DNA from: a virus
Taxonomy: Duplodnaviria; Caudoviricetes
IMG/VR virus record: IMGVR_UViG_3300028498_000046
Span: 1 to 33,178 of that record
Strand: one strand, 5' to 3'
Length of the DNA: 33,178 nt
The position numbers were made by a program, and so were the translations under genes. Under the pieces are notes generated by a model. The model did no database searches, was not told the DNA's origin, and was given only the letters and a program-made list of their open reading frames with translations. Numbering within the stretch: position 1 is the first letter of the stretch; each line of letters starts with the position of its first letter. Below, piece by piece: positions 137-32,609 of this stretch.

Positions 137-415
137 GCTCAAAATTTTAATGATTTGACCATCGATAATGGTGTAGTGACGCCTGCTTAATACCTTATTA
201 GACTCTTAAACCAAAGGATTACTGTATCGATGCTGGCTAGTGGTAGCTTATATTGCTCGCTTTCGTTCTCTCATATGTACATAACCTTAGAAGGATAGGT
301 ATTTATATAGTTGCTCAGTAATAACCAATCGGTTAAAGTTAACTAATATTTAGATATTTGCTAACAGCAGTTAACATGTGAGTTATTAAGCTATAACCAA
401 TACAATGGAGTGTTT

Positions 416-1249: not shown

Positions 1250-1543
1250 ATGAAAAAGCTAATATTAGCTGCAGCACTGTCTATCTTTGCAATATCATCC
1301 AATGCTGGAATCACTACGATAGATAACCCATTCCAGGGCAATACTGTTCTAAAACAGCCTGTAGAGGTTGACCATCCTCTATTTGCTAAAGGCTCTGGTG
1401 GTTCGCAGTGCAAGAGTCTACCGCGTACTTGTGGGCAGATGGCTAGCTGTGAGCAAGCCAAGCTGGCTCTTGAGTGTGGTAACACTAGACTGGACAGAGA
1501 TAAGGACGGAGTGCCATGCGAATCGATTTGTCCAGGTGGTTAA
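1250..1543 (+). CDS. Secreted Excalibur calcium-binding domain protein
   Basis: Signal peptide MKKLILAAALSIFAISSNA; C-terminal CGQMASCEQA...CGNTRLDRDKDGVPCESIC. Confidence 0.85.
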   Translation: MKKLILAAALSIFAISSNAGITTIDNPFQGNTVLKQPVEVDHPLFAKGSGGSQCKSLPRTCGQMASCEQAKLALECGNTRLDRDKDGVPCESICPGG

Positions 1544-4116: not shown

Positions 4117-4786
4117 AGTAAAGCTACCTATAGATGCAGAGAGCTTATCAAAAACATTTTTAGACAATCCTTTCTCTGAAGAAGTAGGTGAAGGCTTTAT
4201 TATAAAAAAATCCACACGTTCTGAAATAATCGGTTCATTTGTTAAGACTAAAAAATTTATAAAAAAGGTTGAAAGCCCTAGAGGTGAGATCAGCACTATC
4301 TCAGGTATAGAATACTTTACTATTGAATTTAGATTTATATTAAATAATGTTAATTTGTTAGAAATATATTCTAAGCCTAGAACCCTTTTACCATTTATAA
4401 ACAAAATAATTCAAGAAATAGGTATAGGTTTTTCCATAGCAGAAATAGATATTGATATTTTTAGCTTTTTGTCTGTATTGGAAATAGAGTTCGGCAGTAT
4501 GCATATTGAAAAAATAGTTATAGAAAACATTAATATTAACAACTATGCCCTTGGTCAATTAACTATAGTCAGTGATAAAGATGCTAGAGAAAGTATAAAA
4601 AACTACTTATTGGAAGGTAAAGATTATACAGTAAAATCAATAAAAGCTCGCCTGACTAATGAGGAGTTTAAAGGTGGCTTGATAGAAATAAATAGAAACT
4701 CTAGGATAACTATCAACGATCTACCTTATAAATTATTTAGTAAGCGTTACTTGCAGATATATTTAGAATTTATAGGTTATGCTTAA
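4094..4786 (+). CDS. Hypothetical protein, third gene of the putative defence operon
   Basis: 230-aa AT-rich ORF overlapping the upstream gene and followed by a terminator. Confidence 0.75.
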   Translation: MKTIRWFKVKLPIDAESLSKTFLDNPFSEEVGEGFIIKKSTRSEIIGSFVKTKKFIKKVESPRGEISTISGIEYFTIEFRFILNNVNLLEIYSKPRTLLPFINKIIQEIGIGFSIAEIDIDIFSFLSVLEIEFGSMHIEKIVIENININNYALGQLTIVSDKDARESIKNYLLEGKDYTVKSIKARLTNEEFKGGLIEINRNSRITINDLPYKLFSKRYLQIYLEFIGYA

Positions 4787-4823
4787 TTAGGGATAGATTT
4801 TTTACTACCCACCCTATCACCCG

Positions 4824-4849
4824 ACCCGCCATTGAGCGGGTTTTTTATT
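4824..4849 (+). terminator. Rho-independent terminator of the three-gene operon
   Basis: ACCCGC-CATTGA-GCGGGT followed by TTTTTATT. Confidence 0.8.
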
Positions 4850-4879
4850 GGCCAATTTAGATCTCTAATTGTAAACAAG

Positions 4880-7090
4880 GCGCTCGACATCATGTCGAAC
4901 CCTACTATCCAAAATTGGACAGTGATATAAACTTGCCAGCCTTGCCCAACTTTGGGCACGCCTTTGTATTTTTCTACATCCTCACTCTGAGTGAAGTTTA
5001 AGACCGTTCATCATCACGATGAACCCTATCTCCTTCCCCAAACTTGGGGAGGGTAGCATTTCAAATGTAACCCTTGCTATACATCCAACCTCAATTTGAG
5101 GGTGGATAAGCACACTGCCCAAAGTTGGGCAATGGAAATAACCCATCGTAATTATCCAACCCTCAGTGGGGAGTGGGCCTAATCAAGATGAGCCCAAAAC
5201 TGGACCTATTTATTTACCTATGCATTACGCTACTACCGTTGGTGGAACGTCTTCTGAATCATAGCTGTCCTAAGCGACTGATTTTTATAAACTTCCACCA
5301 TTGACGGGAGTTGGATTACAACCGCCAGTGACGGTTAGAGCGACTCATTCAGAATTTCACATTCTGGATTGTTAAGGGTATGCTGATTTTTAGCACACCC
5401 TATCAATAAAGGTGCTAAATAAGCTGACACCAATGGGGCGGACGTTTGCTTATAGATAGGCGTCGTAATATCTACGACACCTCTATGATTTTAATCATCA
5501 GCGATGCGCCCAAATTAGAGCAGACCTTGCCAGCCTTATTCATAGCATAACTGCCAGTGGCGAATATGGTAATTATGAATATGAGTGTCCTAAATTCTAG
5601 GACACCCTGTAGCCCCCAATCATCAATGGTGATTAGATCTATTCATTCAATACTCGAGCTGACGCAAAAATCCGCTGGCATGTTGATATTGACTAATAGG
5701 TTTTTAATAGCCATGCTCAAAAGTGAGCATGGGCCTCCACACCTTAAAGAAGTCATAAACAATTGATTTTATTGCTAACGAAAAATTGCGTTGGCTGTGT
5801 AAAGATACCTCCCCAATTTTGGGAAGTGGTAAGTTTTCTACAATCAAGGGCGATAACACGATAATGAATGAGTAATTGGCTGCCGCTTTGAGTATTCAAC
5901 CCGGGGTTGTAAAGCCCGTAATCCATACCTTCTCTGCTAAGTTGTTTTTCAGCATGCGTATAAAAGTTAATTTCCACCGTTGGTGGTAATTCAATAACGG
6001 CGTTTGTTGAGGTCTGCCTAATGTACATCGTCACAACCTTTTTTATGGAATCTTAGAACCCTTATTGCGGGGATAGATATAAGCAAAGTTGAGGGGATTT
6101 ACTATAAGTGCAAAAAACATTCTTGTTATTCGCCTTGTTTAAGATGTTCTCTAATGGAATAGCATGACATCCACAATCTGTAGAAGTCCTATAGCACGGT
6201 CATTTGTCTGTGTTTCAATAGTGCGTTTGACACTATGTCACGTTTGGATATTTTCATAATTACTGTGTTAGCTCGGCTATCGCTTTTGTATTTGTATCAA
6301 TACCAACAATAGCGTCAATTTTGACCTTAAGCCATTTATTTGGCCGACCATAAATATCAGGCTCAGGTAAAAAGCCAGACTTTCGACGCTGGGTGATGGT
6401 ATCGTCAGACTTCCAACCAAAAATGGTTTTAATATCCGCTGTTGTATAGTAAGCACCTGTCACAATTTTAATTCCTTATTCAGATTGTTTGTAATATGCT
6501 CAGTGTTATCGATATAGGGTTTTATGAGGTCCTGTACCTAAAGCTTGCTGAGGTAGTAAGCTTCAGGTGCAGCGGTGAAGTACAACCCCAAGTCTAGATA
6601 TTATATCCACTAAGTTTTATTAAATCGGTCTGCCACCTTGGGTATTCACCATTGAGGTGTAAACCCCGTAGTCCGTGCCTTATCAGGCATGCTGGTTTTG
6701 TGGATGTAGAAATTTGAGCCGTTGGCGGTAATTCAATGAGACTAAGTGCTGATATCCCTATGATTGCTTTCTTAAGAACGCCCACCGTTGGTGGCGATGC
6801 TATTATGACTTAGGCATTCGACATTAAGTCGTAAACCCCGTATTCAGTGTCTTCTTGGGTATGCTGTTTTTTAGCATACCTCTAAAATTAAATTCTCTCA
6901 ATTTGAGATGATTCAATAAGACTTGTCTGTAAATATCATATTGTAGCTGTAGCGATAGGTGTGCAAATGATACGCCCAAGTGCTATTTATAATAATGTCA
7001 GATGAATCACTTTTGAATTATCAGTAGTATCAAGTATTTAGATTATAGGGTGTTAACTTCTTTACACCCTAATCAATGATTGATGATCTA
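4880..7090. repeat. Array of ~30 diverse short imperfect palindromes
   Basis: Examples: 4884-4898 TCGACAT-C-ATGTCGA; 4943-4958 TGCCCAA-CT-TTGGGCA; 5006-5024 GTTCATC-ATCAC-GATGAAC; 5035-5050 TCCCCAA-AC-TTGGGGA; 5585-5605 GTGTCCTA-AATTC-TAGGACAC; 5711-5732 CCATGCTCA-AAAG-TGAGCATGG; 6858-6880 GGTATGCTG-TTTTT-TAGCATACC; 7047-7070. No T-tails and no shared repeat unit. Confidence 0.85.
6260..6463 (-). CDS. Small AlpA/excisionase-like winged-helix protein
   Basis: YYTTADIKTIFGWKSDDTITQRRKSGFLPEPD...NKWLKVKID pattern; GTG start with AAGGA RBS. Confidence 0.7.
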   Translation of the reverse strand: MTGAYYTTADIKTIFGWKSDDTITQRRKSGFLPEPDIYGRPNKWLKVKIDAIVGIDTNTKAIAELTQ

Positions 7091-7594
7091 TTTAGAAGTA
7101 TTACTATAAATCTAAGGGCTTCATAATATACATTTCATCTATCTAGCCTTAATTTATGCGTTACATTACCGAAACTTAACAAGTACAAAAAACAGGTTGC
7201 GCGGTGCTTCCATGGGGTTGTTTTGCTAACAACTACACGTGCGCGATTATTTGCCGTTTTAGTCGTGCATTTTTGATTCGTTAAATCATACTTTAGCAGT
7301 AAATCGACAAGTTGGATGTCCTTATCTTTGATGGTAATCAAATATATTGTGGTGATTTTCTGATACTAAAATCAACTTGCAACTTTCTTTCATGGGGTTA
7401 AATTGCTGACGCAACCTATCAGTAGCTATATATAATATTTGAATAGGTCTAAGTAGGAATTTTTGACTATATCTTAGATATAGAAATGACGCTTGCTTTC
7501 ACGATGTTCAAAAAAGTCGCAAGTTAACAAAGAGAGTATTCCAGAGCCAATCTAACCAGCTATAAGATTTGAAGTAAAAACAAGGAAGTGCCCA

Positions 7595-7870
7595 ATGGCT
7601 AAGAAGTTATGGAAGAACGTCACTGAAGACGAAAAAATGAAGATGAAGCAGTTTGTTATTAATAATCCACCGGACACACCGCTGACGCCTGAATATGCAG
7701 CAAGCTACTTGGGTGTATCGACAGCAACCCTGCAAAAAATGCGCTGCGAAGATACCAATGGCATAGCATTTTTTAAGCCCAGTTATAGGTGTGTCGTTTA
7801 CTACAAGCGCGACTTAGATGCGTATTTGACAAGCTCGCCAGCCTATCGCTGCACCTCTCAATACACTTAA
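7595..7870 (+). CDS. Excisionase/HTH_17-like DNA-binding protein
   Basis: LTPEYAASYLGVSTATLQKMR...GIAFFK...VVYYKRDLDAYL; AAGGA RBS. Confidence 0.8.
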   Translation: MAKKLWKNVTEDEKMKMKQFVINNPPDTPLTPEYAASYLGVSTATLQKMRCEDTNGIAFFKPSYRCVVYYKRDLDAYLTSSPAYRCTSQYT

Positions 7871-8047
7871 CTACATGAATGCGTCAATAAGTATTGGGAA
7901 GCACTTGCTGGCAAGTATAGGATTGGGTGTACTCCAACTACCAATAGCGAATAGATTAAGCCTACTGATTATGAGGCTAGATAGTTATCATTGATTTTCA
8001 ATAAGCTTAATGGCATTAATAGAAGTCTATAGTAACGAGAGAGTGAA

Positions 8048-8236
8048 ATGATTAAATGGTTAAGCATGAGAGAAACAGCAAATGAGCTAGGGTTCAAGGA
8101 CCCACGCACCTTCCGCGATAACTATATGGACCAGTACCCACCAGATAGGGTTAATAAGCACTTAAAATGGTGGAAGCAATCAACAGTCGATTATATTAAA
8201 GAAAATGAGTTTCCAGATAGAACAAAGAAAAACTAA
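8048..8236 (+). CDS. Small AlpA/excisionase-like DNA-binding protein
   Basis: WLSMRETANELGFKDPRTFR...YPPD...KWWKQSTVDYIK. Confidence 0.7.
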   Translation: MIKWLSMRETANELGFKDPRTFRDNYMDQYPPDRVNKHLKWWKQSTVDYIKENEFPDRTKKN

Positions 8237-8343
8237 GTACAAACCTCTATTCATCTGAAAATAGGATTAACGACGCAACCAGTTAGCCCTGATGCCGGTC
8301 AGTCATAACAGCTAAGCTGCCAAAGATAACACCATGGTTAAGA

Positions 8344-8754
8344 TTAATAGCTGCCGCACAAGCTCTCGCATGGTACTCCGTCCCCATCCCTATCCAAATC
8401 ATAATTACCGCACTCAAAGGCTTTCTCAGCCTGACTACAGCTGGTCATCTCATAGCAGTACTGAGGTAACTCTGAGCAGTTATCTTCGTCCTCTTCCTCG
8501 TCTGCAGACTTATCATTGTTGAAAAATGAGAGCAATCCTCTAGGATTATCTTCATATGCTTGGGGGCTGTCATCTGCATCGCTAGCTTTGTATAGCTGAC
8601 TATACAAAATGACTCCAACTATAGAAGCTATAGCTAAGCCGGCCATTGTCTTTTTATGAAGAAGTAATTCTTTTAACAAGCAGAACATAGCCCATAGAGC
8701 AATACCTATAACAAGCAAGGCAAAGAATGTTTGAACAATAAAGACGATGCTCAT
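8344..8754 (-). CDS. Membrane-anchored Excalibur calcium-binding domain protein
   Basis: Two hydrophobic segments, an acidic linker, then CYEMTSCSQA...CGNYDLDRDGDGVPCESLC. ATG 8754 overlaps the upstream TGA (ATGA coupling). Confidence 0.8.
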   Translation of the reverse strand: MSIVFIVQTFFALLVIGIALWAMFCLLKELLLHKKTMAGLAIASIVGVILYSQLYKASDADDSPQAYEDNPRGLLSFFNNDKSADEEEDEDNCSELPQYCYEMTSCSQAEKAFECGNYDLDRDGDGVPCESLCGSY

Positions 8755-9017
8755 AGACCCAATAAGGGTGCAAAAATCCCGATGAGCCACAGCGCCACCG
8801 CTACTTTTAGCACGTCCTCTCTCTTCATCTTTGAATGCTTAGCGACCGCTATAAACACGAATGGAATACATAAGACCCCAGCCGCAGCGGTAGCTATAAA
8901 ACCCACTATCCCAACCGCATGTTCGACAAAAAAAGAATAGTAAGCATTAACGAGTAGCGCGATGCCAATCAATGAGCTGAGTGAATATAAACCATACTTG
9001 ACAACATTCTCTTTCAC
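8751..9017 (-). CDS. Small integral membrane protein (three hydrophobic segments)
   Basis: 88 aa, GTG start with GAGGTGAG RBS. Confidence 0.75.
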   Translation of the reverse strand: MKENVVKYGLYSLSSLIGIALLVNAYYSFFVEHAVGIVGFIATAAAGVLCIPFVFIAVAKHSKMKREDVLKVAVALWLIGIFAPLLGL

Positions 9018-9110: not shown

Positions 9111-12100
9111 TTACGTGCCAGCCAATTCCTCCTGTCTTAATGCTAGGCTGTCCTGTATATTCTGGCGCTCAGCACTGCCAAAGTCTTTACGCTCGACGCG
9201 CTTCTCTGCTGACTTTTCAATCTTGTCGATATCAACATTAAAGTGCTCAGCGTTACGCTCATTCCATGCGTCCATCTCGTTATACAGTGCATCGACACGC
9301 GCATCGTCATCTTGATAGATAGCCTCTGCTAAGTGTTTGCTAAAGTAATCCGTCTTAGCCTTCAGCATGTTTTTCATATCATAAGCGTTACTACGGTCAC
9401 GCCCTGGTCTTGCGTTATTGGCAGGGTTAAAGGCCAACGACTTAATCACGGCATCGGTTTTATCCAAGTCCATGATCTTATCACCTTTGGTGTTACGGTA
9501 TGATCCAGTCAATGCAATCTCAGCACCTGACGCCGCATCACGAATATAACGAGGTGACGCCGTGATAAGTGCGTCTTTATACTTCCCATCGGCGGCCATT
9601 GACGCGGCTGAAAAGAAACTCTCGTAAAACCCTGACGACGCACCCAATATTTCAGCCCAGTCGGTAGGCCCTGGTCTAATCACATCAGTACCGGGAATAA
9701 CATTACCCAGACTTGAACGACCATGAATATCAATACGACCCTTCTCACTGGCAATCCCATACATCAGCGCGTCGGCATTACTCTTACCTAGCAGTCCTTC
9801 TAAATAATCAGGCAAGTTAAATGCTTTACCAAACACGCGATAAGCAATACCTTCAAACAGATCGCGTAAGTCATCAGCGAACGGTAAGCCCAACATGCCA
9901 GCCAAGGCAAATTGCCACATCATCGCTACTGCCAGCGCTTTAACTTCTTTGTCTCGACCGTGGCGTATCATCTGCTCAGTATAGTTAATCGTGAACTGTT
10001 TAAACACGAGGATTAATGGGCCATACTGACCAAGCTTGCCGTTACCGCGTGCCAGCCCTGAACGGTTCGCTTTGTTATAGATGCCCTGCGTCTGCTGGAT
10101 GATTGATACCGCAAAGTCGTAGTCGCTATCAAACCCCTTTGCTTTTAATTTAGCGGCGCCCATATCTTTCGCTACCCTAAAAGCGGCAATCATAGTGCTA
10201 CGGCGGTTGATCGATTCCGATACTTCGGCAGGCCAGCCAGCGGCGGCTTCAATATTACCCCACACGCCACTCGCCACCCCGCCTTTACCTCGTTCAAGCC
10301 CTTTAATCATGTAGATATTTTGCGGATCAAGATGCCCTTCTCGCGCCATGCGTAAGTAATCTTCTTTTTTTACCCACGCTGGCAGGCTATCTTCAAAACC
10401 TTTCCAATTTGGTGTTGGCAGTCCGGTCGCTTTTTTACCCATATTAATGGCAGACGCGCCCATATTTTTACTAACGATACCAAGTGCTTGCGCCATATAA
10501 GCATGGCCCTTGCCAGCGCCTACATAAGCAGTCAGTTTGGGTATGGTCTGGGTAAATGGCTGCGTTAAGTTTAAGAATAAAAACGCTGGTGAGAAGCCCA
10601 TAAAGTAATGAAACATAAGACTTCTTTGCTGAGCGAACTCCTCTTGCGGGTTTTCCATATTCTCAAAGACTTTCTGCGCCTCATTCTGCAAATTGCCGTC
10701 CTCAATGTTTTGTATTGAGCGTTCAATCTCATTGTTGTATAGGCTGCGCCCACTGTAGCGGGCATTACTCATCACGAATGATGACAGTACGCGTGGCATA
10801 TCCTCACTATAACCAGGAACTTTCTTACGATGAATCAGGCGTTTTAGTGCACTACGATCACTGACCGCAATCTTTAAGTACGCTTGATAAGCGCCATCAT
10901 CATCTAAGCCAAGTTCAGCGGCAAATAGCTGCACCGTTTCAGGAGATAAGCCTTTATCCTTAAACTGCTTAAATCCTTCTGGATTCAGCGTGCCAGTGCC
11001 GATGGTAAACTGGCTCTCATCGTAGCGCTCTTTTAACTCTTTGATAGCCTTACGCTGCTGACCTTTGGTTTCGTATAACTCGAACAAGTCTAAGTCATTC
11101 GATACTTTATCGCGCACCTCTACCGCATAGTGGCCAAAACGCATCAGCGGTGCATAACCATCTTCAACCAGCTTGTCATACTTGCCAGCGACCGCATTCA
11201 TCACATCAAACACGGCATCCAACTGCTTCTGCATACGTGCTTCAGCTTTTGGTGTAATTAACCCGCCCTTGGCTAGCTTCTCAAGCTCATCCGTCATGTG
11301 CTGCTGAAGCATAAGATTATGGCCAATAGGTGGCAGCCCTGCCAACTTTAACCTTTGCACAGTAGGAAGGCTGACTAGTTTTGTACCTTTAGCTAATGCA
11401 GACAGCGTATCGACCGTCATATTTAATACCGAGCCATCAATTGCCTGACGCGCTCTGCGGTAAAGATTAATATCCTTATCAGTTAAATCAAACATCGTTT
11501 GCAGCTCGTTATCATCCCACACCTTGTCTGCCATGGTGCCGTCAAAAATTGCTTTTGAAACACGCTCCATCGCTTCTTTTTTCTTACCAACGACTAGGCG
11601 CGTGTCCCATATCTCAGGTAGGTATGTTTGCACCAACCCTGCCTCGTTATTCTCATAAGCGATGCGCGCCTGCACGTTGTCCGTAAATATTTTAAACACT
11701 GGATTAAGTAGCGCAACATGCTGCGGTGTTGCCAAGTGGCGTCTAAGTAGCAGATTAACCCCAAACTTAGACGACATGGTAGTCGCTTGTGCAAGCGCCA
11801 CTCTGTCTCGTGCTTTTTCTTTAGCGGTGACTGGCTTGCCGTCGGTACCAAGGCTTGAATAGCGTCGGCTGAACCTGATATCAGGATTTGAGCTATCAAA
11901 CGTGCCAGCGTTGTCGGTGGCTGATTTAACTTGGTTAGCATCTAACACCATGACTTCTAAGTTATCAGCGCCATTATCTAACACCACGCTGTCATGACCG
12001 TTATCTATGAGGTACTGCGTGAACTCTTCTGCTTCCGCTTTACCACCATCACGGATCATGTTTTTTAAGCTTTGGGTAGCAACAAAGGGATTGCGCGCAT

Positions 12101-15100
12101 TAAGATACACGTTCATTACGCTAAGCCCAGCGTCACCCTTTTTATTAAAAGCATAAAGGCGAGCTAATGGCTCATTTGTTGCAAAATAATGGCCTACACC
12201 TAGCCAACCAAAGTCTTTCTTGTTGGCGTGCGCATTATCAAATATAAAGAACTTGTCTCGTGTACCGTGTGAAAGCACACGTGGCTCGCCGGTCTCAGGG
12301 TCTAAATTGAAAATTCTCTGCGGATTATGTTTGCTGCTATTAGGGCTGTCGGATTGCCGCTTGTTTCCAGTATCTCTACTGTCTCTCTCGCCATTACTCC
12401 TGGTGTCATCCATGCTTCTTGTGATAGCTTCATTGGGCTTTCCTCTTTTATCCTGTCTAACTCCTCTATCTGCTCGCTCGTTAAGTCCAGTAGCGTTTTC
12501 GGTTCTTTGTCCATTTTCCCAATCTCCAAACCAGTTTTTGAATGAAGGCGTGCGTACCTGTAACCATTGTAGTTCAGTTAATTTACTTGGTAAACCATTA
12601 GGTGCCTTCATCCAACTGTCTGTACCTTCGTACTGTTTGCGCACTGCATCGACTTGTGACTGCGGTGCTGGCGCTTGGCTAAACTGCGCCTGTCCTGCTG
12701 GCATGTCATCAATACCAGCAATATTTAACGGGCTGGCTTCTTGATCAGATAAACGCTTAACCATGCGCTCAGCCAACTGAACGATATCATTAGGCGTCAT
12801 CTTTAACTGTACGCCAGTATGATTGCGAACCCATGCCCGCACGCCAGCCATAACGCGATTAACAAAGCGTTTAATGACTGCAAGCGGACCGCCACGCTCT
12901 GTTGCCTGCGCGTACTCAGTGATTAGGTACGGGATATATTCATCGCGTGCCTCACTTTCTGTATCGGTGACTGCCTCTGCTCGCTCCTTGGCTGCCACTG
13001 CATACTTGTTGCCAGACTTCACTAGGTTATCAAAGTTGGTCATGAGGCCCATGTAAGTTTGCGGCGCAAGCATCGATTGAATACCAGCATGACCGCCCAT
13101 TTCATGTAGTAGAGTAGCGATGGCATTGTCAGCGGTTAGGTTGTCTGCAATCAGCGTTACCTTGCCGTCGTAGTAAAACCCTTCCGCATCACTTGGGATA
13201 AGCAATCGACCATCGGCATTAACAAAATCGTTGAGGGTGCGCACTCGTAACTTGCCAGACTTGACCAGGCTTGCGACCGCTTCTTTGCCGAAGCGCTTTT
13301 GCAATGCGCCAATAATTTGCTGGCTAGTGGTGCCGGTTACACCTTTGGCTGGGTTGGTTGTTATGCTTTCGGCTGCTTGCTTCATCTGTCCGGCGCGGCT
13401 AAATAATATTTTGCCGTTACCACCTTCTGAGGCTTTGCTGTCGATGGTGGCGAATAGGTTATCAAACGCCTCTACAACGGGTGCCATCTCACTCTCTAGC
13501 AAGTACGGATATCTATCCATGTTTCTAGGAAAGGCATTCTCTGGCGTGACGTTGGCTAGGAAGTCGCTGCGTGCGCCTTGCTGCTCTAACTTATGAATAA
13601 TATAACTCTCAAAACTACGTGCCGCACGTTCGATAATGCGTGACCAATAACCATCGGGTGCGCCTTTATCGATGGTGGTTGCACGATCTTTCATGGGCGA
13701 ATCATTAAGCGAGTTAACCAAATCCGCAAAAGCTTCTTCAACTTTTGGGCGCACGCCCTCTGGATGACTTGGGTCGGGTGCCCAATTTTCAGCGGCGTAC
13801 ATTGGGTCATTGCTATTAGCTCTGCGCTTCTCAAGCGCTGGTTTGCTAATTAAATAACCTCTACCTTTTTGAGGTGTGTACATCATAGAAGGTTCAGGCT
13901 TATAGGTGATATAAGTATCTTCTCGCGACTTGTTTCTCGCTGGCGAATCACGGAATGATGTGAAGTGATGATCGAGTGCATGAAACCATTCATGCGCCAA
14001 CGTGCCAGCGCCTTTGGTTTTGGTTAGGTTAATCACCACTTGCGATGGTTCATAGTGCGCCATAGCACTGCCCTTGCCACGCGCACCAAAAGACATACCA
14101 AGCTTACCGCCTAGTCCGATAGCTTCAGATGGAATACCTAGCACGCCAGCCAAGTCCATGAAGGCGTCATAAGCATCATTAAGCATACCTTGACGGTCTT
14201 TACTATTTGCGCCTTGCTTAACCCAATTACCAAACTGACCACCACGCAAGCCGAACGCTTTCATGAATTGTTCGGTTGTTACATCTTGACCGCTTCGATG
14301 GTCGGGGCCAATGCGTTCACGGTTTTGTCTTGAACGTGTGTCAGTTTTTTTGACATTCACTTTTTCTTTGTGCTGCGCCCACAGCTCAGACAGATCGTTA
14401 TTATTTTCTTTCAGGAAAGCCCGGGCAGAATCTCTGTCGTTAAAGGTGATTAACGGCGTCTTATCTTTGTCACTGGTCTGCGTGATAAACCATGATTTAC
14501 TATCGCCACGACCGCGACTGTATAAATCAAATTTTAAAGTCGGTGTTTTTACCTCACCTGACAATAGCTCGTTTACCTTACTTACCACCTCTGATATTTG
14601 CTTATTGTCAGTAGGAATAACGTGGCGGCGCTTATCGATAGTGATATCAAAGCTCATATCAGGCGATGTGCTACCGTCGTCATTTTGAATGGCGTAGTAA
14701 GGGCGATGATCCACGGCGGTCACTCGTGCCCACTGGTCCTGCTCGATGGCAGATAGTAATTGCGCGTGATAGCCAGTAGTCTGCAAGCCCTTTACTTTGG
14801 TCATTTGCTCGATGAACTGCCCCACCAATGTATCGTCACCCATTATCTGCTGCATGATACCGCGTGCATTTTTGACCTGCTCTACCCAGTTATTGAGTTT
14901 GTAACCTTTGCGCGGCTTACTTGGTATAGTGCCACGCAAGACAGTAGCGAGAGCTGCCGTCTGCTTGTCTTCGATAGCCTCAATATCCTTCTTGGGCCAT
15001 ATCTTACTTAATGGCTGGCTAGAGATATCGTCATCAGTAATCTCTCTTTGATAGAACGACTCCATATCTTTACGCGCACCAGTTATCTTCTCGCCAAAGT

Positions 15101-18100
15101 CTTCAATCTCTGCGACTGTCTCAATAGACGTGGCTGGCTTGTCTGCTTTTTCGGCAGTAGGTTTTTTGGCTGCCTTTTCTTCGGATTTTTCGGGCGATGG
15201 CTGTTTGTCGGCCTCAACTTCTACGGCGGTGCTTTTGGTTTCGCTCGCTGTATTCGTGGTGACCATATCTTCACTTTGTACCGGCTTTAAATCCTCAGCA
15301 CTAGAAACCTTTTGATTGTCTTCTGACGCTTTATTCTTAACCGCCTTTTTCGCTGCGGCTCGCTTGGCGTTGGCGGATTGAGGCGCTTCAACCTCATTGT
15401 TCAAACCTAATGAGGCTGTATTAGCAAGCTTGCTTACCTCCGCCTCTTCAGCGGCTTTCTTAGCTGCTCTAACCTCTGCGTTAGCTTTAGCTACTGCACG
15501 ATAAGAGTCGTCCCTAGCTTTAGCAGCTACCTTGCCAGCATTGACCTCTATATCGGTGTGAAAGTCACCAGCCTTGTCGCTCTGACCTGCATCACCAACA
15601 TCAAAGAACTCGCCCGATGTAACCAATCTGCCAGCATCGTTATAAGATATACGCTGACCATCAGGCGCTTCATACACCGGCTTGCCATAAGCGTTTTCGC
15701 CGATGATGCTGTTTACTTGGCCACGACCATACTTCACGGTTGGTGGGTGGTTATTCGGATTGGAATAAGCAGGCGCTTTATTTTGAATTGTAAAGCCATC
15801 CTTCGACTGCACAATATCAACTGTAACAGGGTTAAGCTTGCGCTTCTTGATAGCGGCTCTAGCGGCAGATTTACTCTTATATGCCGTCGTCTGGTCTGCT
15901 GGCTCAGTGGTGCTGACATTAACCACAGGTGTTGCTGGTTTGCTTGCAATAGGTGCTGGAGTATCAATGACAGGATTTTGCTCTGTGAGCTCGATAGGGT
16001 CTGTTGATATTGACTCAGTATCAATTGGTTCTGGCTGCTGCTCTTGCATTGGCGCGGTTGATTCGTCTGCTTGCTCAACCGGTTGTTTGCCTGCCTCTAC
16101 AATTGCATAGCCATCCGCTACTTCCATGATGCTGACCGACTTTGGGTCAATCTTTTGCTTTTTAATGGCAGCGCGTGCCAGCGGCTTGCTTTTATAAACC
16201 TCCTGCTTATCTGCTTCCGCTTGTTCGGTTGCGATTTCAATAGGTGCTGTCATGTCTGTGGTTTTGGTTGCGCCCGGGGCTGGGATATTGATGACTGGGT
16301 TTTCATCAGTTAACTGGGTCGGATTCGTCCAGCCTACCTTCTCACTTATTGTTTCATGAACCACCCTGTTGACTTCAGGCTGTGGCAATCCTGCGTCTTC
16401 AGCGCGCTTCTGTGCATCAAGCATAGCTTGTGGGTCGCGCCCATAGTTATTAGCAATATCGTCTTTGAGGTTATCAAGTGTATAGCTAGTAGATTCCTGC
16501 TCTACTACTGGTTGCTGTGCTGGCATGGTTAAACCATTGGCGGTAGGTGCGATTTCTTGCGGCTGCTCGATTGTTGGCGCAGTAACTTGTTCATCTGTCT
16601 GCGCCACTGCGCCTTCACGACTTTGTCGCACTCTCGTTAGGCTGTCAGTGAACCACTGGTGCAACTCTTTTTGCACGCCCTCTGGCATAGACTGCCAGTC
16701 AGACTTAGCGACGTTCTGTTCTATCTCACCACCAAACGCCTCAGCGATTGCCTTTGCTTTGGCTGTCGCTGGCAAGCTACTATCCCAAAAACGTGCCAGC
16801 TTAAACGGCGCGCCATCAGCACCCACGATAGTAGTATCAAACGATTCATTTTCATAAGGCTGTGCAAGCTGCTCGCGTGTCGATAGCAACTCATCTTCTT
16901 TGGCACGATCAGCTTCGCGCTGTTCAATTTTTTGCGCGACAGCTTGTTTTTCTGCATCAGTAGTAGCGGCTTGCGCCTCTTGCTGTAACTGACCGTCGAT
17001 TTGCTGCTGTTTTGCGCGCTCACTAGCGATGTAATCATTAATACCTGCGGTAGCGCCTTTGATGCTTTCTTGCTGCTGTGCGAACGCTGTGTCCTGTTCT
17101 GTGGCTGCGGCTCGACTAACCACGCCTGACAGTCCTTGCTTACCTTCACCGCGCTTGCTGTCGTACCAGCTTTGGGCGGCTGCAATTGATTCCTCTAATG
17201 GCTTCTCACTGCTACCGTCTTCAATCGCCTCATCAAGCGCTGCTTGCTCTGCAATAAGCTCAGCAATCTGTGCGTCTTGGGCATCAAGCTCTTTTTCGCT
17301 CAATACTGGTGCGGCTGGCGTTGCTTGCGGGGCTGGCGTGCCGTCTGGGTTTAATGCGTTTTCAAAGCCTTGGTCATCCAGTTCAGTAGCGCCATCGACT
17401 TGACCGTCAAATTCGGTTGCCGTGCTATTGGTTGGTTCAATACGTGGTGCGCGACGTGCCAGCGAGGTGCGAGGAATACTTGCCTTTTCTGCCTCTGCTG
17501 CCATGGCATCAAGTGCGGCGCGAGTTTCTTCCACACGCGCCGTTAGTGCCTGACCTTCTGGTGATCGTGGCGATACAGCTTCAATCTGCTGTTGCAGCTG
17601 CGGTATTTGTCCGGCAACTTCAGCATAAGCTTGCTGTGCGGTCTTTAAATCATCTTGCGCTTGCTGTAGTTTTGAGTTGCGTGTGCCAACATAGACACTG
17701 CCGCCCATTACACCGCCTAAGATACCGCCCATCAGCATCGCTTCCTTAAGCTGCGGCTGATTTATCTTGTCTTTTACCCCTACATCAACGGCAGCTTGCT
17801 GTGCTTTATAATCGGTATAACCTTCTTGCAGCGCCTCTTCTGCGACGTTCAGTCCAACAATACCAGCACCAACGGCAGCGGGGATAGCAACCCTTGCCAC
17901 CTTGCCAGCGTCAGCTTTGACCGCCAATGTGTTAAATACTTTTTGCCCCCACTTGCTGACAGCGCCACCAGCGGCGCGGTTGGCAGTAAATGAGCCAACA
18001 CCCGGCGCAAGCATACTAAGCGCCAGTGTCGCAAGACCAACAGCATCACCTGATTCTTCTGCAATACTACTGATTGTCTGGTCGCGTGATTTTTGGTGCG

Positions 18101-19055
18101 CTTCTTCTTCACTCATGCCGTCTTTAATATTTTTATCAAAGTGACCTTTGTAAATATCTTTTGATCGTACTGCTGTGGCTAGTTGCTCGGGTGTGGCGTT
18201 CTCTAACTCTTGCTTGGTGCTATCATTACCATCGCCATAAGCTTGTGGGTACATGGTTGCAGCTGCTGTACCGTAGGCAGTGGCGGCAGTCATCTTCGCG
18301 CCTGCGCCTGCCAGCTGCGCACCTTTTGCAGCGGCGCCGGCACCCGTAAAGCTTAAGGCAAGGTTTGGTATTTGTTCGATAGCGGATAGTGTTAGATTTT
18401 CGGTAAACGATCCGTTTTGCTGGGTATCAGCATAGGCTGGATAGACTTGTTGTAAGTTATCCTCGTGGCGCTCTAACGCCTTAGCGCCGCGGTCGAAGAT
18501 TCCACCGTCGTCATTTTCACCTACGTCAGCGGCAAGCTGTAATGGATAACGCAATGCTCTTGATGTACCAGTAGCGAGCGCGCCAGCCGCTTCCTCAGCT
18601 ACATCACGCCCAACGCTTGCGGCTGATTGTATTTTAGCTGTGTTGTTGCGTAGAGATTCTTTTTGGGTGTAACGATTATCAACTTGGCGTTGTGTCTGGC
18701 CTTTTTGGCGTAACGTACCTAGTTGCTGGTAGGCTTTAGCTTTCGCTGCCTGTAAACCTTGGTGGTTTTTATTATAAAGACTGTCGTAGGTCTCCTGATA
18801 CTTCGGACTACCTGGCTTTAACTTAGGGGCGATTCTTTGTAGTTCCTGCTTGAGCTTGACCTCAACCTTTGGCTTCCAAGTCTCATTTTCCCACTTGCGC
18901 AAGGCTGCTGCTGCGACTTTTTTATCTTCATTGGCATAGCTTTTATTGGTGACAGCATCGACGCCTTTTGATACGACGTTACGTCCATCGCGTGATTTAC
19001 GCTGCGTATCAACGGCAGACTTGGCAATACCTAATAGTGTTTTATCTAAGCTCAT
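9111..19055 (-). CDS. Giant polyvalent virion ejection/internal protein (LPD5/LPD1-like, HExxH metallopeptidase-like, ART-PolyVal-like, PLxRFG domain)
   Basis: 3314 aa. Gly/Ala-rich hydrophobic N-terminal region; IEDFGEKITGARKD (~15066-15110); FGLRGGQFGNW...AHEWFHALD (HEWFH 13980-13994); LLHEMGGHAG (13089-13106); VRTPSFKNWFGDW...HGT...GHYF...EVMV...QVKSATDNAGTFD (~11866-12614); YAPLMRFG (11133-11150). Confidence 0.85.
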   Translation of the reverse strand: MSLDKTLLGIAKSAVDTQRKSRDGRNVVSKGVDAVTNKSYANEDKKVAAAALRKWENETWKPKVEVKLKQELQRIAPKLKPGSPKYQETYDSLYNKNHQGLQAAKAKAYQQLGTLRQKGQTQRQVDNRYTQKESLRNNTAKIQSAASVGRDVAEEAAGALATGTSRALRYPLQLAADVGENDDGGIFDRGAKALERHEDNLQQVYPAYADTQQNGSFTENLTLSAIEQIPNLALSFTGAGAAAKGAQLAGAGAKMTAATAYGTAAATMYPQAYGDGNDSTKQELENATPEQLATAVRSKDIYKGHFDKNIKDGMSEEEAHQKSRDQTISSIAEESGDAVGLATLALSMLAPGVGSFTANRAAGGAVSKWGQKVFNTLAVKADAGKVARVAIPAAVGAGIVGLNVAEEALQEGYTDYKAQQAAVDVGVKDKINQPQLKEAMLMGGILGGVMGGSVYVGTRNSKLQQAQDDLKTAQQAYAEVAGQIPQLQQQIEAVSPRSPEGQALTARVEETRAALDAMAAEAEKASIPRTSLARRAPRIEPTNSTATEFDGQVDGATELDDQGFENALNPDGTPAPQATPAAPVLSEKELDAQDAQIAELIAEQAALDEAIEDGSSEKPLEESIAAAQSWYDSKRGEGKQGLSGVVSRAAATEQDTAFAQQQESIKGATAGINDYIASERAKQQQIDGQLQQEAQAATTDAEKQAVAQKIEQREADRAKEDELLSTREQLAQPYENESFDTTIVGADGAPFKLARFWDSSLPATAKAKAIAEAFGGEIEQNVAKSDWQSMPEGVQKELHQWFTDSLTRVRQSREGAVAQTDEQVTAPTIEQPQEIAPTANGLTMPAQQPVVEQESTSYTLDNLKDDIANNYGRDPQAMLDAQKRAEDAGLPQPEVNRVVHETISEKVGWTNPTQLTDENPVINIPAPGATKTTDMTAPIEIATEQAEADKQEVYKSKPLARAAIKKQKIDPKSVSIMEVADGYAIVEAGKQPVEQADESTAPMQEQQPEPIDTESISTDPIELTEQNPVIDTPAPIASKPATPVVNVSTTEPADQTTAYKSKSAARAAIKKRKLNPVTVDIVQSKDGFTIQNKAPAYSNPNNHPPTVKYGRGQVNSIIGENAYGKPVYEAPDGQRISYNDAGRLVTSGEFFDVGDAGQSDKAGDFHTDIEVNAGKVAAKARDDSYRAVAKANAEVRAAKKAAEEAEVSKLANTASLGLNNEVEAPQSANAKRAAAKKAVKNKASEDNQKVSSAEDLKPVQSEDMVTTNTASETKSTAVEVEADKQPSPEKSEEKAAKKPTAEKADKPATSIETVAEIEDFGEKITGARKDMESFYQREITDDDISSQPLSKIWPKKDIEAIEDKQTAALATVLRGTIPSKPRKGYKLNNWVEQVKNARGIMQQIMGDDTLVGQFIEQMTKVKGLQTTGYHAQLLSAIEQDQWARVTAVDHRPYYAIQNDDGSTSPDMSFDITIDKRRHVIPTDNKQISEVVSKVNELLSGEVKTPTLKFDLYSRGRGDSKSWFITQTSDKDKTPLITFNDRDSARAFLKENNNDLSELWAQHKEKVNVKKTDTRSRQNRERIGPDHRSGQDVTTEQFMKAFGLRGGQFGNWVKQGANSKDRQGMLNDAYDAFMDLAGVLGIPSEAIGLGGKLGMSFGARGKGSAMAHYEPSQVVINLTKTKGAGTLAHEWFHALDHHFTSFRDSPARNKSREDTYITYKPEPSMMYTPQKGRGYLISKPALEKRRANSNDPMYAAENWAPDPSHPEGVRPKVEEAFADLVNSLNDSPMKDRATTIDKGAPDGYWSRIIERAARSFESYIIHKLEQQGARSDFLANVTPENAFPRNMDRYPYLLESEMAPVVEAFDNLFATIDSKASEGGNGKILFSRAGQMKQAAESITTNPAKGVTGTTSQQIIGALQKRFGKEAVASLVKSGKLRVRTLNDFVNADGRLLIPSDAEGFYYDGKVTLIADNLTADNAIATLLHEMGGHAGIQSMLAPQTYMGLMTNFDNLVKSGNKYAVAAKERAEAVTDTESEARDEYIPYLITEYAQATERGGPLAVIKRFVNRVMAGVRAWVRNHTGVQLKMTPNDIVQLAERMVKRLSDQEASPLNIAGIDDMPAGQAQFSQAPAPQSQVDAVRKQYEGTDSWMKAPNGLPSKLTELQWLQVRTPSFKNWFGDWENGQRTENATGLNERADRGVRQDKRGKPNEAITRSMDDTRSNGERDSRDTGNKRQSDSPNSSKHNPQRIFNLDPETGEPRVLSHGTRDKFFIFDNAHANKKDFGWLGVGHYFATNEPLARLYAFNKKGDAGLSVMNVYLNARNPFVATQSLKNMIRDGGKAEAEEFTQYLIDNGHDSVVLDNGADNLEVMVLDANQVKSATDNAGTFDSSNPDIRFSRRYSSLGTDGKPVTAKEKARDRVALAQATTMSSKFGVNLLLRRHLATPQHVALLNPVFKIFTDNVQARIAYENNEAGLVQTYLPEIWDTRLVVGKKKEAMERVSKAIFDGTMADKVWDDNELQTMFDLTDKDINLYRRARQAIDGSVLNMTVDTLSALAKGTKLVSLPTVQRLKLAGLPPIGHNLMLQQHMTDELEKLAKGGLITPKAEARMQKQLDAVFDVMNAVAGKYDKLVEDGYAPLMRFGHYAVEVRDKVSNDLDLFELYETKGQQRKAIKELKERYDESQFTIGTGTLNPEGFKQFKDKGLSPETVQLFAAELGLDDDGAYQAYLKIAVSDRSALKRLIHRKKVPGYSEDMPRVLSSFVMSNARYSGRSLYNNEIERSIQNIEDGNLQNEAQKVFENMENPQEEFAQQRSLMFHYFMGFSPAFLFLNLTQPFTQTIPKLTAYVGAGKGHAYMAQALGIVSKNMGASAINMGKKATGLPTPNWKGFEDSLPAWVKKEDYLRMAREGHLDPQNIYMIKGLERGKGGVASGVWGNIEAAAGWPAEVSESINRRSTMIAAFRVAKDMGAAKLKAKGFDSDYDFAVSIIQQTQGIYNKANRSGLARGNGKLGQYGPLILVFKQFTINYTEQMIRHGRDKEVKALAVAMMWQFALAGMLGLPFADDLRDLFEGIAYRVFGKAFNLPDYLEGLLGKSNADALMYGIASEKGRIDIHGRSSLGNVIPGTDVIRPGPTDWAEILGASSGFYESFFSAASMAADGKYKDALITASPRYIRDAASGAEIALTGSYRNTKGDKIMDLDKTDAVIKSLAFNPANNARPGRDRSNAYDMKNMLKAKTDYFSKHLAEAIYQDDDARVDALYNEMDAWNERNAEHFNVDIDKIEKSAEKRVERKDFGSAERQNIQDSLALRQEELAGT
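12302..12514 (-). CDS. Candidate overprinted 70-aa protein nested in the ART domain of the giant gene
   Basis: Alternative frame MDKEPKTLLDLTSEQIEELDRIKEE...ALIAANIIRREFSI. GGAG lies 9 nt before the ATG. Limits coincide with a low-complexity insertion in the host frame. Confidence 0.5.
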   Translation of the reverse strand: MDKEPKTLLDLTSEQIEELDRIKEESPMKLSQEAWMTPGVMARETVEILETSGNPTALIAANIIRREFSI

Positions 19056-19062
19056 ATTGTAT

Positions 19063-21051
19063 CTACCAGTCTATGTTGTCGTTTAGGTTCTCTAAGTAGT
19101 TAACATTCTCTGCTGTTTTCGGGTCAGTCTTTACGGCTGGTAAGCCGCGTAAGGATAGAGCTTGCAGCTTACCGGTTTGCGGAGTTTGTCTTGCTGGCGC
19201 TTTTGGCTGCTGACCGGGTAACATCAGCCCACCACCCGTATTGGCACTGGCAGTAGACCCACCGCCTTTTGCATTGGGATTGATGTCGTAGATCATTTGC
19301 TTGAGCTGACCAAGTGATGACGCGCCTGCCATTGAAAGTAATACTTTATGTCCTAGGGCGTTCTTATCAGCCTTACTCATCGCTTTCTTCTTACCTCTTG
19401 GCTCTGGCACCGCACCAATCACCAAGTCAAACGCTTCTTGATATAGGCTTAAAAACTCTTGCTCATTCTTGGCTGTACCCATGCTTTTTAGCTTCGTGCC
19501 AGCACGTGCGTAGGTGGCAGTGGTGGCAGCATCCGGCTTGATACCTAGATTCTTCACGTCTTTTAGCGCGATATTGACACCCTTATCAACTGTGGCGTTA
19601 TAGTCTTTTGTGGTTCTGACGGCTTGTGCTGGCGTCTGATTGGTTTTATTTGCGCCTTTTGGAGGCTTTGCTGCCAATGGCTGTGTAAGTGTGGTTTGCA
19701 CGCCGCCCGCTGTGCTTGACCGATGTTTTACTAGGTAGTCTGTAAGAGAAGTCCCTAGCTGGTCTTTAGGGTTATAGCGGCCATTGGTTTGCACAAACTT
19801 ATTCATGCCGCCCTTACCGCCAAGATGAGCGACGGCAACCAAGCCGCCTAATGTCACTGGAACGCCATTAATTACTTTGCCTACTGCACCGGTTGCTTGT
19901 GCTGCGCTAATCAGATCGTTTACGTGCCACTCATTAACGGCTCGCTGCTGCGCTGGTGGCAAGTTTTTAAACTGGCCTGCTGATATAGGTCTTGAGCCTG
20001 TTGCTGTTGCGTAGTCTTTTAAACGGTCATCGCCCATCTGTATTAAGCCGCCATAGCCTTTGCCATTAGTATTGGTTCTAAATGCTCTGCTATTGCCGCT
20101 GCTTTCTGTGCCAGTGAGTGAGCTTATAATCCCATTGACTTGACTGGCTCTATCTTTGCCAAGCGTTACACCTGGCGTCTGACCTTGGTCGACTCCTGCT
20201 TTGTATAAATACTCTTCCATTCGATTGTAGGTCTGTTGGTCGATACGTCCTGCAGCAAGCTCGCCCTGAATGTACGCTAACGATTGTGCGTGCCCTGCTT
20301 GGTTGTCTTGCTTATCTATTGCGTAGCCCTGCAATTTTTCATCGCGCTCTGTTTGGTTTTTAAAATCAAGGCCCTTTAAGCTGACAGTATAACCATGGTC
20401 GCGTTCAGCTTTTATGCCATCCGCTTTGACATCAATCTTTTTCTTACCGCCATACAGTGTTAGCTCGCGCTGATCCTTCTCAGTCTCTTTGCGCTTCTCC
20501 GCTTCATAAGCGTCTTTCTCTGCGGCAAGAGACTGCCCGTTTTGCAACTGCTTGTAACCATTCATCAGCTGGTCATACGTCACTGAGTCAGTGCGCATGA
20601 CTTTGCCGGTGTCTTTATCAATGATATTTTGGAAGTAGTATTTATTGCCATTCTCATCGGTGCGTGCCGCGACCTTGCCATTGGCATCACGCGCTACGTT
20701 TATCTTGTACGGTAAATCGCTGTGACTGTTTGCGCCTTCTACAATGGCATCGATAGCACCTGACTCATCGCCCAGATTCTTAAAGTATTCGACTTTATTA
20801 AACGCCTTGCCATAGTTTCTTTTATTGATAGTATCAGTGCGAGTGTCTTTTTCGTCTTCAAGCTTGAGAGTATCAGACTGATAATTAACGTCATGTGTTT
20901 CTTGCGCATTCTTATCCTGCTGCGCTTGACGGTTGCGGTCGTACTGTTTATCCGCTACACGCTCCGCTTCTTTTTTCTTATCGTCTTCATGCCCCATGAT
21001 ATTTTTGGCAAATTGATTGGTAAACTGTGCAATTCCGGTCAAGCTGCTCAT
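19063..21051 (-). CDS. Putative virion ejection protein with lysozyme/transglycosylase-like domain
   Basis: 662 aa. TESSGN...GYGGLIQMG...GKVINGVPVTLGGLVAVAHLGGKGG...DQLGTSLTDYL (~19730-20135) is lysozyme-fold-like. AGGAG RBS. Confidence 0.75.
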   Translation of the reverse strand: MSSLTGIAQFTNQFAKNIMGHEDDKKKEAERVADKQYDRNRQAQQDKNAQETHDVNYQSDTLKLEDEKDTRTDTINKRNYGKAFNKVEYFKNLGDESGAIDAIVEGANSHSDLPYKINVARDANGKVAARTDENGNKYYFQNIIDKDTGKVMRTDSVTYDQLMNGYKQLQNGQSLAAEKDAYEAEKRKETEKDQRELTLYGGKKKIDVKADGIKAERDHGYTVSLKGLDFKNQTERDEKLQGYAIDKQDNQAGHAQSLAYIQGELAAGRIDQQTYNRMEEYLYKAGVDQGQTPGVTLGKDRASQVNGIISSLTGTESSGNSRAFRTNTNGKGYGGLIQMGDDRLKDYATATGSRPISAGQFKNLPPAQQRAVNEWHVNDLISAAQATGAVGKVINGVPVTLGGLVAVAHLGGKGGMNKFVQTNGRYNPKDQLGTSLTDYLVKHRSSTAGGVQTTLTQPLAAKPPKGANKTNQTPAQAVRTTKDYNATVDKGVNIALKDVKNLGIKPDAATTATYARAGTKLKSMGTAKNEQEFLSLYQEAFDLVIGAVPEPRGKKKAMSKADKNALGHKVLLSMAGASSLGQLKQMIYDINPNAKGGGSTASANTGGGLMLPGQQPKAPARQTPQTGKLQALSLRGLPAVKTDPKTAENVNYLENLNDNIDW

Positions 21052-21064
21052 AATAATCTCCTAG

Positions 21065-21796
21065 TTATAGCCATACGCCGGTGCCGACGGTGGTTTTTGC
21101 TGGCTTGTTTTTGTATTGATCCCACGCCTTATAGACGGTGCCGCCAAGGTCAGCCCAGCTTTTAGAAGCGTTATCGGCATTGGTTTGCGACTGTGTGGCG
21201 CGGTTGGCATAGGTTTTTGATAGGGCGGTTGACGCGCTATCAATGTTTGATTGCACGCCATTTAGCTTATTGATGCCGGTTTGATTGGCGTCTTGGTAAC
21301 GTGCAAAGGTTAAATCTTTAGCTCGGTCCATTTCTTGCTGGCGCGACTGATTGATAGTGCCTGCCAGCGCAAGTGCTCGTGATAAAGATAAGTCTCTTCC
21401 TAATGATTCAGCACGCCCGCTATTGGGATTAATACCCATGCGTTGCATGCCTCTAATTCTGGCGTTCTCTGAATTGGCGAACTGAGTATTTACATCACCG
21501 ATGGCGCGAGTAGTGACACCATCAATATCAGGCTTTACGCCCTGCCTTACTAGAGATAAATAACCCTCTTCAATTGGGCCGTAGGTTTCGTCGTAGTCCG
21601 CCTGCCTCTGCTTAGCAATTTCGAGCTGCTGTTGTTGCAAATACAAAGACTGATCACTAGCCTTGTTGGCTGCTTTTTGCTGCTTATCCTGCTCCTTTCC
21701 ACCTAGAAAGCCACCAACCCCACCAATGACGGCACCAGCCGGGCCACCTGTTAAAAAACCTGTCGCCGCACCTAAAACCCCACTTAAAAACCCCAT
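21065..21796 (-). CDS. Putative DNA transfer/pilot protein (P22 gp7-like position and composition)
   Basis: Gly-rich hydrophobic N-terminus MGFLSGVLGAATGFLTGGPAGAVIGGVGGFLGG followed by a Gln/Ala-rich helical region. First gene of the late operon; GAGGA RBS. Confidence 0.7.
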   Translation of the reverse strand: MGFLSGVLGAATGFLTGGPAGAVIGGVGGFLGGKEQDKQQKAANKASDQSLYLQQQQLEIAKQRQADYDETYGPIEEGYLSLVRQGVKPDIDGVTTRAIGDVNTQFANSENARIRGMQRMGINPNSGRAESLGRDLSLSRALALAGTINQSRQQEMDRAKDLTFARYQDANQTGINKLNGVQSNIDSASTALSKTYANRATQSQTNADNASKSWADLGGTVYKAWDQYKNKPAKTTVGTGVWL

Positions 21797-32404: not shown

Positions 32405-32444
32405 GACCGCGCACTCCTATCACTTACTTATGACGTTAAGAAAC

Positions 32445-32488
32445 TGACCACCAATCTGACCACCATTTATGTAACTAATTGGTGGTCA
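32445..32488 (+). repeat. Putative integrase arm-type binding sites (right end)
   Basis: TGACCACCA at 32445 and 32457; inverted TGGTGGTCA at 32480. Confidence 0.75.
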
Positions 32489-32586
32489 TTAATGATAATC
32501 AAGGATAACACACGTTAGCATTAGAATCATATAAATAAAGGGTTTAAGCTAACAAAGGTTAACATGAGATAACATGATAAAGACCC

Positions 32587-32609
32587 CCTCTGTGGGCCTT
32601 TTTTTGCTT
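32587..32609 (+). repeat. Right attachment core (direct repeat)
   Basis: CCTCTGTGGGCCTTTTTTTGCTT; only the 3' arm of the terminator hairpin is present here. Confidence 0.85.

Follow-up and report, generated by a model that had tools for sequence, protein, structure and literature searches.

Results

A gene nested in the ART module of a giant phage-type protein

In a 33,178-nucleotide stretch of viral DNA (Caudoviricetes; IMG/VR record IMGVR_UViG_3300028498_000046), hereafter called the window, we examined an ORF of 70 codons that is overprinted, in the +1 frame, on the ADP-ribosyltransferase (ART) module of a much longer gene. Judging from DNA comparisons and structure modelling, we are nearly certain that this frame is a real gene. 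As for its function, the modelling makes us lean towards a cis-encoded inhibitor that would shield the producing cell from a virion-delivered ADP-ribosyltransferase. The claim of a nested gene, made in a first-pass annotation of this DNA, gained support from codon positions, start signals, homologues and the predicted fold. The features concerned are listed in Table 1.

Table 1. Coordinates of the nested ORF, its host gene and associated features in the window
Feature	Position	Strand	Description
Nested ORF	12302..12514	-	70 codons, +1 frame of giant gene; overprinted
Host gene, large polyvalent, likely virion-delivered protein	9111..19055	-	3314 aa; LPD5, LPD1, ART-PolyVal and PLxRFG matches
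Shine-Dalgarno-like GGAG	12524..12527	-	Host Gly-Asp codons, 9 nt 5' of nested ATG, weakly folded RNA
ART module N-terminal cap, KAPNG...FKNWFGDW	12516..12650	-	Host residues 2136-2180; last codons provide nested start signals
Insert read in host frame	12306..12515	-	Residues 2181-2250; predicted disordered R/G/D/S/N-rich loop in place of usual short spacer
ART-PolyVal catalytic core	11898..12296	-	Host 2254-2386; H2263, Y2290, Y2301, E2367; Pfam PF18760, E 2e-18
Helix and loop after strand 2	12117..12170	-	Host 2296-2313; main predicted contact surface for nested protein
Two upstream ejection-type genes	19063..21796	-	243 aa (DNA-ejection/virion PHROGs) and 662 aa (lysozyme-like PHROG); one run with giant gene

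The 70-aa frame was confirmed on the same strand as the host gene, and the protein quoted in the first-pass annotation was reproduced. It is an intact ORF with its own start signals, wholly within another ORF in a shifted frame, and overlies host residues 2181-2251. The proposal that its ribosome-binding site and ATG come from the GDWENG codons, and its TAG from the NLD codons, held at the codon level: the GGAG is made of the G-D codons of host FGDW (GGA G), the ATG of the N-G codons (AAT G) and the TAG of the L-D codons (TTA G). The RNA around the nested start was less folded than shuffled sequences (z +1.41). The encoded protein is acidic, with 14 D/E compared to 8 K/R.

Candidate signs of expression were rejected as evidence. 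A promoter scan for a separate promoter of the nested gene gave 3 sites compared to 1.2 ± 1.1 in shuffles; the RNA-labelled runs yielded contigs mostly flagged as probable DNA; and one RNA run held a 151-base contig, at a depth of 2, over positions 12468-12618.

The insertion site

Alignment of ART-PolyVal homologues confirmed that the ORF coincides with an insertion. Among 175 WFGxW-to-GEP motif pairs in 120 homologues, 103 had a spacing in the 10-19 bin, nearly all of them 14, compared to 76 residues in the window. The insertion had been described as lying inside the ART-like domain, and that part can be refined: the Pfam match starts at host residue 2254, downstream of the insert, which sits between the N-terminal cap and the catalytic core, outside the Pfam core. 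Membership in PF18760 is clear (67.9 bits over host 2254-2386, compared to a curated cut-off of 31.2). In a model of host residues 2136-2396 the cap and the core were confident, while the insert had pLDDT below 50 (model residues 63-110). The site tolerates insertions, since this cap/core position is occupied in many homologues by an unrelated folded domain about 184-204 aa long.

The fold of the ART module resembles tankyrase/PARP (Foldseek, best E 2.3e-4), as expected of an ART. Residues H2263, Y2290 and E2367 are invariant in 52 aligned rows, and E2367, assigned without superposition, is the candidate catalytic acid. A sequence search found no solved ART relative. The model of the module (window 11868-12650) also matched a cyanophage A4 pre-ejectosome chain (PDB 9k3a_B, E 4.3e-4), where an ART-like domain may possibly have gone unrecognised; the words "ADP" and "ribosyl" are absent from the main text of the pre-ejectosome paper.

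Chance and codon usage

An open +1 frame is by itself weak evidence, with a chance of about 0.2: in 20% of random synonymous re-codings of the insert, the +1 frame stayed open. Linkers poor in hydrophobic residues tend to behave this way, because T is scarce at their second codon positions.

A codon-usage score trained on the window's own genes was more discriminating. Among 14 ATG-started shifted ORFs of at least 35 aa, the nested ORF was the one that beat the host frame. Sliding windows along the 3314 codons favoured a shifted frame in three adjacent positions, only at the nested ORF.

These results bear on the explanation that there is no gene, and that a disordered, hydrophobic-poor linker leaves the +1 frame open by default. 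The re-coding trials favour it, as does an ATG found near the cap motif in 24 of 43 insert-free homologues when the searched interval is wide. On the other hand, the true linkers of the same giant protein never favoured the +1 frame by codon usage, and the codon score of the nested ORF is joined by a shift of the wobble position, enriched start signals, higher conservation in the +1 frame and a confident predicted fold (all below). We consider the absence of a gene very improbable and already largely refuted.

Selection and start signals across inserts of related loci

Homologues with off-frame-looking inserts share the ART signature N[RK]KDxGWLG. Scans with the corresponding alignment gave the best 80, 78 and 80 of 115, 181 and 118 confirmed loci. 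After removal of duplicates and of loci without the upstream anchor, 86 distinct ART rows were left. Of these, a short spacer was present in 43 and an insert of 35-92 residues in 42, among them the window; one further locus was dropped as an insert locus, its +1 frame being broken and its insert looking different.

The +1 frame was free of stops in 39 of the 42 inserts, compared to 23 expected, and the +2 frame in 9 of 42, compared to 9.9 expected. Translated in +1, the inserts read as short helical proteins, acidic for the most part, which belong to at least four families. Profiles of the nested families recovered loci that had been held out, again at the insert site (L004, for example, at 1e-11). 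Many nested frames extend 13-35 codons into the ART core; that of the window stops at the junction.

Codon position 1 of the host frame is the wobble position of the +1 nested frame. We observed that the variable codon position moves, within the inserts, to this nested-frame wobble. In 15 locus-disjoint pairs, some of which may not be true homologues though the clear ones agree, mismatches at host positions 1, 2 and 3 numbered 204, 159 and 131 in the inserts, compared to 418, 345 and 747 in the ART cores. For example, L012/L094 had 9/2/2 in the insert and 7/4/27 in the core; the counts were 39/20/16 and 34/20/66 for L051/L085, and 23/17/14 and 26/21/58 for L005/L011. In 10 pairs picked by eye, amino acid identity was 235/429 in the +1 frame compared to 177/429 in the host frame, with one pair favouring the host frame and three near ties. 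These DNA comparisons support, family-wide, purifying selection on the nested frame. The first-pass annotation had named as contrary evidence homologous inserts that conserve the host-frame protein and break the alternative frame; the homologues came out the opposite way.

The start signals behaved similarly. An ATG followed the motif FxxW[FY]G[DE]W in 17 of 17 insert loci, compared to 13 of 43 controls, and the Gly codon of this motif was GGA in 11 of 17 (2.9 expected from local usage), compared to 9 of 43. As far as these sequences tell, half of the start signal is pre-existing in insert-free genes, and it is sharpened where the insert is present.

Ribosomal frameshifting is another way into the +1 frame, and would produce a shortened giant protein that ends in the helical domain instead of the ART. 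SD-like sequences can stimulate frameshifting, one is present here, and the +1 frame is open for about 20 codons upstream of the nested ATG. The ATG kept in all 17 insert loci, about 9 nt from the GGAG, is a feature that a frameshift would not need, and an informal look noticed no slippery sequence; we judge this route extremely improbable.

All significant local HMM matches of the nested families lie at the ART insert, in loci that had been fetched via the ART. Scans of viral sequences with two nested-family alignments returned only contigs already in the set and one chance match. One of the loci is an isolated and annotated phage: in Bacillus phage Dartukuta (MW749009.1), an unannotated 60-codon nested ORF occupies the same ART site inside gene 57 (L004:2119-2301). 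Additional candidate overprints, R/G/D/S-rich host stretches whose +1 frame reads as helical, were noticed further upstream of the ART in three loci, about 220-150 codons before it in L005, 280-220 in L233 and 500-440 in L099.

The window's own nested family

Protein relatives of the window's nested product comprise a cluster of 16 members (P0001), P0002 and P0018 (79-80% identical) and P0139 (44%), all of 70 aa. P0139 fits the +1 frame of a same-length insert in the host protein P0027 at 65 of 71 positions, compared to a mean of 17 and a maximum of 31 in shuffles. Between the window and this P0027/P0139 pair, identity was equal in both frames (30/71 host, 31/70 nested), and BLOSUM similarity favoured the nested frame (154 compared to 114). 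The determined differences were 22/64, 19/64 and 22/52 at nested positions 1, 2 and 3. This comparison gives modest sequence support for selection on the nested frame.

A diverged allele of the same length, between conserved flanks, is present in sequencing run X17. In 30 of its bases read by hand, 6 of 13 differences fell at the nested wobble position, 4 of them silent there, and 5 of 10 nested residues were kept compared to 3 of 10 host residues. The case for selection within the window's own family is thus built on proteins and on these 30 bases.

Searches for DNA homologues of the window's nested gene found none in viral or metagenome contigs (single-protein query), none in 154 genomes of a Psychrobacter-centred genus search, and none in genome contigs queried with a single ART protein; these negative results do not establish absence. 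The ESM Atlas gave no usable match for two nested proteins, and the nested protein had no match in Pfam, PHROG, NCBIfam or PADLOC. Profile comparison of the window's family with three other nested families gave no convincing match (P 0.025, 0.47 and 0.33), while two of the other families matched each other.

Predicted fold and complex with the ART

The alternative frame had been described as a natural-looking helical protein, which was borne out: from eight sequences, the nested product was predicted as three helices with pLDDT 93.6. A fold search with this model returned nothing at E ≤0.001 in the PDB or BFVD. Against known folds the best Z was 4.4 (rmsd 3.6, 65 aligned residues), not above background, with no Z of 5 or more. 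Absence of a fold match does not make the nested protein a new fold.

Co-folding with the ART domain, suggested by the first-pass annotation as a check, was carried out for the window's pair. It gave an ipSAE of 0.75 compared to 0.12 for the best of three controls; of 157 solved pairs 116 reached the ipSAE mark used, as did 2 of 215 mismatched pairs, rates that apply only approximately to the alignments made here. The three runs agreed in at least 91% of contacts, with partner pLDDT of at least 87. No like complex was found in fold or sequence searches. This controlled prediction lends support to the suggestion that the product is an antitoxin or chaperone of the ART.

The predicted contacts on the ART are K2268, W2284, 2294-2313, 2328-2335, N2361 and N2365, most of them on a variable surface helix. 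Positions at the predicted interface include L2300, F2303 and N2304 of the ART and M41, T45 and I64 of the nested protein. The interface also holds residues that are invariant or nearly so (W2284 and K2331), as well as Y2301. In PARP1, the catalytic triad is His862, Tyr896 and Glu988, and the acceptor site includes Met890 and Tyr986, according to the part of PMC6486540 consulted. W2284 lies 6 residues before the triad Tyr and N2365 lies 2 before the triad Glu, the same spacings as those of Met890 and Tyr986. We infer from this numbering, not from superposition, that interface residues may match the PARP acceptor site.

Differences between the window and P0027 were concentrated at the interface (8/22 compared to 11/115 elsewhere, p 0.003). 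As evidence of co-variation this was downgraded: among the variable columns of the diverged tract p was 0.06, and that surface also varies fast among ARTs that have no insert.

The product might bind the ART for a purpose other than inhibition: as a chaperone in folding or packaging, to stabilise the enzyme, or as a cofactor that specifies its target. The predicted complex is silent on activity and most of its contacts lie on the variable helix, which would suit such a role; moreover, products of overlapping viral genes often act together, with 11 cases cited in the portion of PMC8227390 consulted. The ART module is, however, predicted to fold well alone, and the interface includes the positions that match the acceptor site by spacing. 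We regard a helper role as quite unlikely.

Exchange of the ART and its insert

Two relatives of the giant protein indicate how the insert is inherited. P0080 is 93% identical to it upstream and 85% downstream, and only 36% in the ART core; P0129 is 81% identical upstream, 88% downstream and 34% in the core. The ART cores of both follow a 14-residue spacer, without the insert. With flanks so similar, and a diverged core behind a short spacer, the ART core and the nested gene were therefore exchanged together, in agreement with the earlier proposal that they are inherited as one cassette.

On the ART tree, which is weakly supported (20 of 59 inner branches open), the insert label required 4 changes, 2 of them forced, compared to 20 in shuffles. 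The window's row has a long branch and groups with insert-free rows. Given the weak support and the long branch, repeated origin of the nested genes is possible.

In the window's lineage the ART and the insert are linked. The same ART clade has 35 distinct rows without the insert. Nineteen of these were aligned, and H, Y and E are kept in every one; a nested partner is therefore not always required by this type of ART. That is the main difficulty for the inhibitor reading. A composition scan for a partner elsewhere in the insert-free loci was insensitive, as it missed the window's own insert.

Such rows would also be expected if the nested gene coded for an accessory protein with a role independent of the ART (acidic anti-defence and regulatory proteins are examples), the gene being lodged where a strongly expressed late gene has a loop that tolerates insertions. 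Occupation of the site by several nested families, and its acceptance of the unrelated folded domains described above, fit this explanation as well. Against it, the complex prediction is well above the controls and lands on conserved ART residues, the inserts cluster on the ART tree, and they were found with this type of ART, while the ARTs of the closest giant relatives have the 14-residue spacer instead. The significant nested-family matches, all at the ART insert though in loci fetched via the ART, point the same way. We consider an independent protein unlikely, though it retains some weight.

Genomic context

The genes of the element include an integrase, AlpA-like, KilA-N, O-like initiator, DnaC, DnaB and Q-like genes and three of ejection type; no capsid, terminase or tail-fibre family was matched among the 24 ORFs scanned. 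Repeats pair 110-136 with 32442-32468 and 40-62 with 32583-32605, and being near both ends they may mark the limits of the element. The gene content of the stretch 40-32605 suggests a phage satellite that brings its own ejection genes and encodes a giant polyvalent protein. Giant genes related to this one are found in Psychrobacter genomes.

Several other features were observed in the window. A three-gene operon at 2043-4786 (+) matches PADLOC Hp1, Hp2 and Hp3, which we take to be the 3HP system from satellite hotspots. With 159 aa, the KilA-N protein at 410-889 (+) may be truncated; its match is to the N-terminal half of BstA. Two small Excalibur-domain proteins, at 1250-1543 (+) and 8344-8790 (-), flank the accessory region on opposite sides. 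The region 4800-8300, about 3.5 kb without long ORFs and without an Rfam match, contains degenerate 63-nt repeats at 5887, 6637 and 6809, a 27-nt family at 5290, 5969, 6711 and 6777, and a perfect 17-nt inverted repeat at 4942/5116; it possibly consists of decayed genes or structured RNAs. Five 20-nt iteron-like repeats spaced by 19-24 nt at 25576-25687, inside the O-like initiator gene, are likely a replication origin. An Rfam sRNA-Xcc1 match above the gathering score lies at 27546-27633 (-), inside the weak ORF 27493-28257.

Discussion

In the inhibitor reading that we favour, the nested gene and the giant gene would be read from one late mRNA, and the small protein would be made wherever the giant protein is made. 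By covering the target-binding face of the ART, it would hold the enzyme inactive inside the producing cell. Packing of the giant protein and its delivery to the next cell would then take place without the nested partner, leaving the ART free there. Delivery from the virion is assumed because of the ejection-type neighbours and the proposal of Iyer et al. (PMC5512222; PMC9503650, each consulted in part). An inhibitor written inside the ART module would be kept together with it when modules shuffle between giant proteins. Insert-free ARTs may have another form of control or do less harm; alternatively, the nested proteins may be accessory.

A wider form of this idea we put forward tentatively, as somewhat short of probable: an antitoxin overprinted in a loop of its own toxin module, with several unrelated small +1 inhibitors arising as ART cassettes repeatedly converted the conserved Gly-Asp-Trp-Glu-Asn motif to a ribosome-binding site plus start codon, so that the antidote travels with the shuffled domain and stays behind at injection.

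Same-strand nested genes are known, for example, Rz1 of phage lambda, embedded in Rz, and traH, embedded in traI of RP4. The gene overlaps of phiX174 are a further case (cited in the part of PMC8227390 consulted). The window resembles them in having a small shifted-frame gene, with its own start signals, wholly inside a larger one, and in that the products may act together. It differs in that the overlap falls on a loop that the enzyme module can do without, a conserved motif of the host protein supplies the start signals, the site is filled by several nested families, and the nested product is predicted to inhibit the enzyme encoded in the host frame.

Among the predicted protein-modifying domains of polyvalent proteins, ART domains are the commonest, and Iyer et al. 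(2017) proposed, by analogy with T4 Alt, that polyvalent proteins with ART-PolyVal are virion-delivered host-modifying enzymes (PMC5512222, sections consulted). The window is alike in its Pfam match, its LPD1, LPD5 and PLxRFG neighbours and a giant phage-type protein beside ejection genes. The same sections describe no inhibitor or nested gene, in contrast to the window, and give the triad as H-Y-D, whereas the window's clade has an invariant Glu starting the last core strand. Phage ART pairs, namely ART with Dmd, RES-HTH and TNT-Imm63 (PMC9503650, in the part consulted), likewise combine an ART-family enzyme with a dedicated small partner whose neutralising effect on it has been predicted or shown. 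There the two genes are adjacent; in the window the predicted partner is overprinted inside the enzyme module, has no family match, and the enzyme is one domain of a 3314-aa protein.

Nested genes and ART-inhibitor pairs are thus known kinds; what is new here is an overprinted candidate partner inside an ART module. A full-text literature search, with subscription journals outside its reach, found no description of genes nested within ART-PolyVal modules, nor of toxins that carry their antitoxin overprinted in them.

If true, a nested inhibitor would explain, for one clade, how the producing cell tolerates ART domains, and would give a handle for cloning and assaying these enzymes. Bacillus phage Dartukuta, as an isolated phage and the one annotated phage checked, offers a practical test system. 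The predicted interface would mark the target-binding face of the ART. Finally, the insert-free ancestors with half of the start signal, together with nested families of 35 to 92 codons, would form a natural series for gene birth by overprinting.
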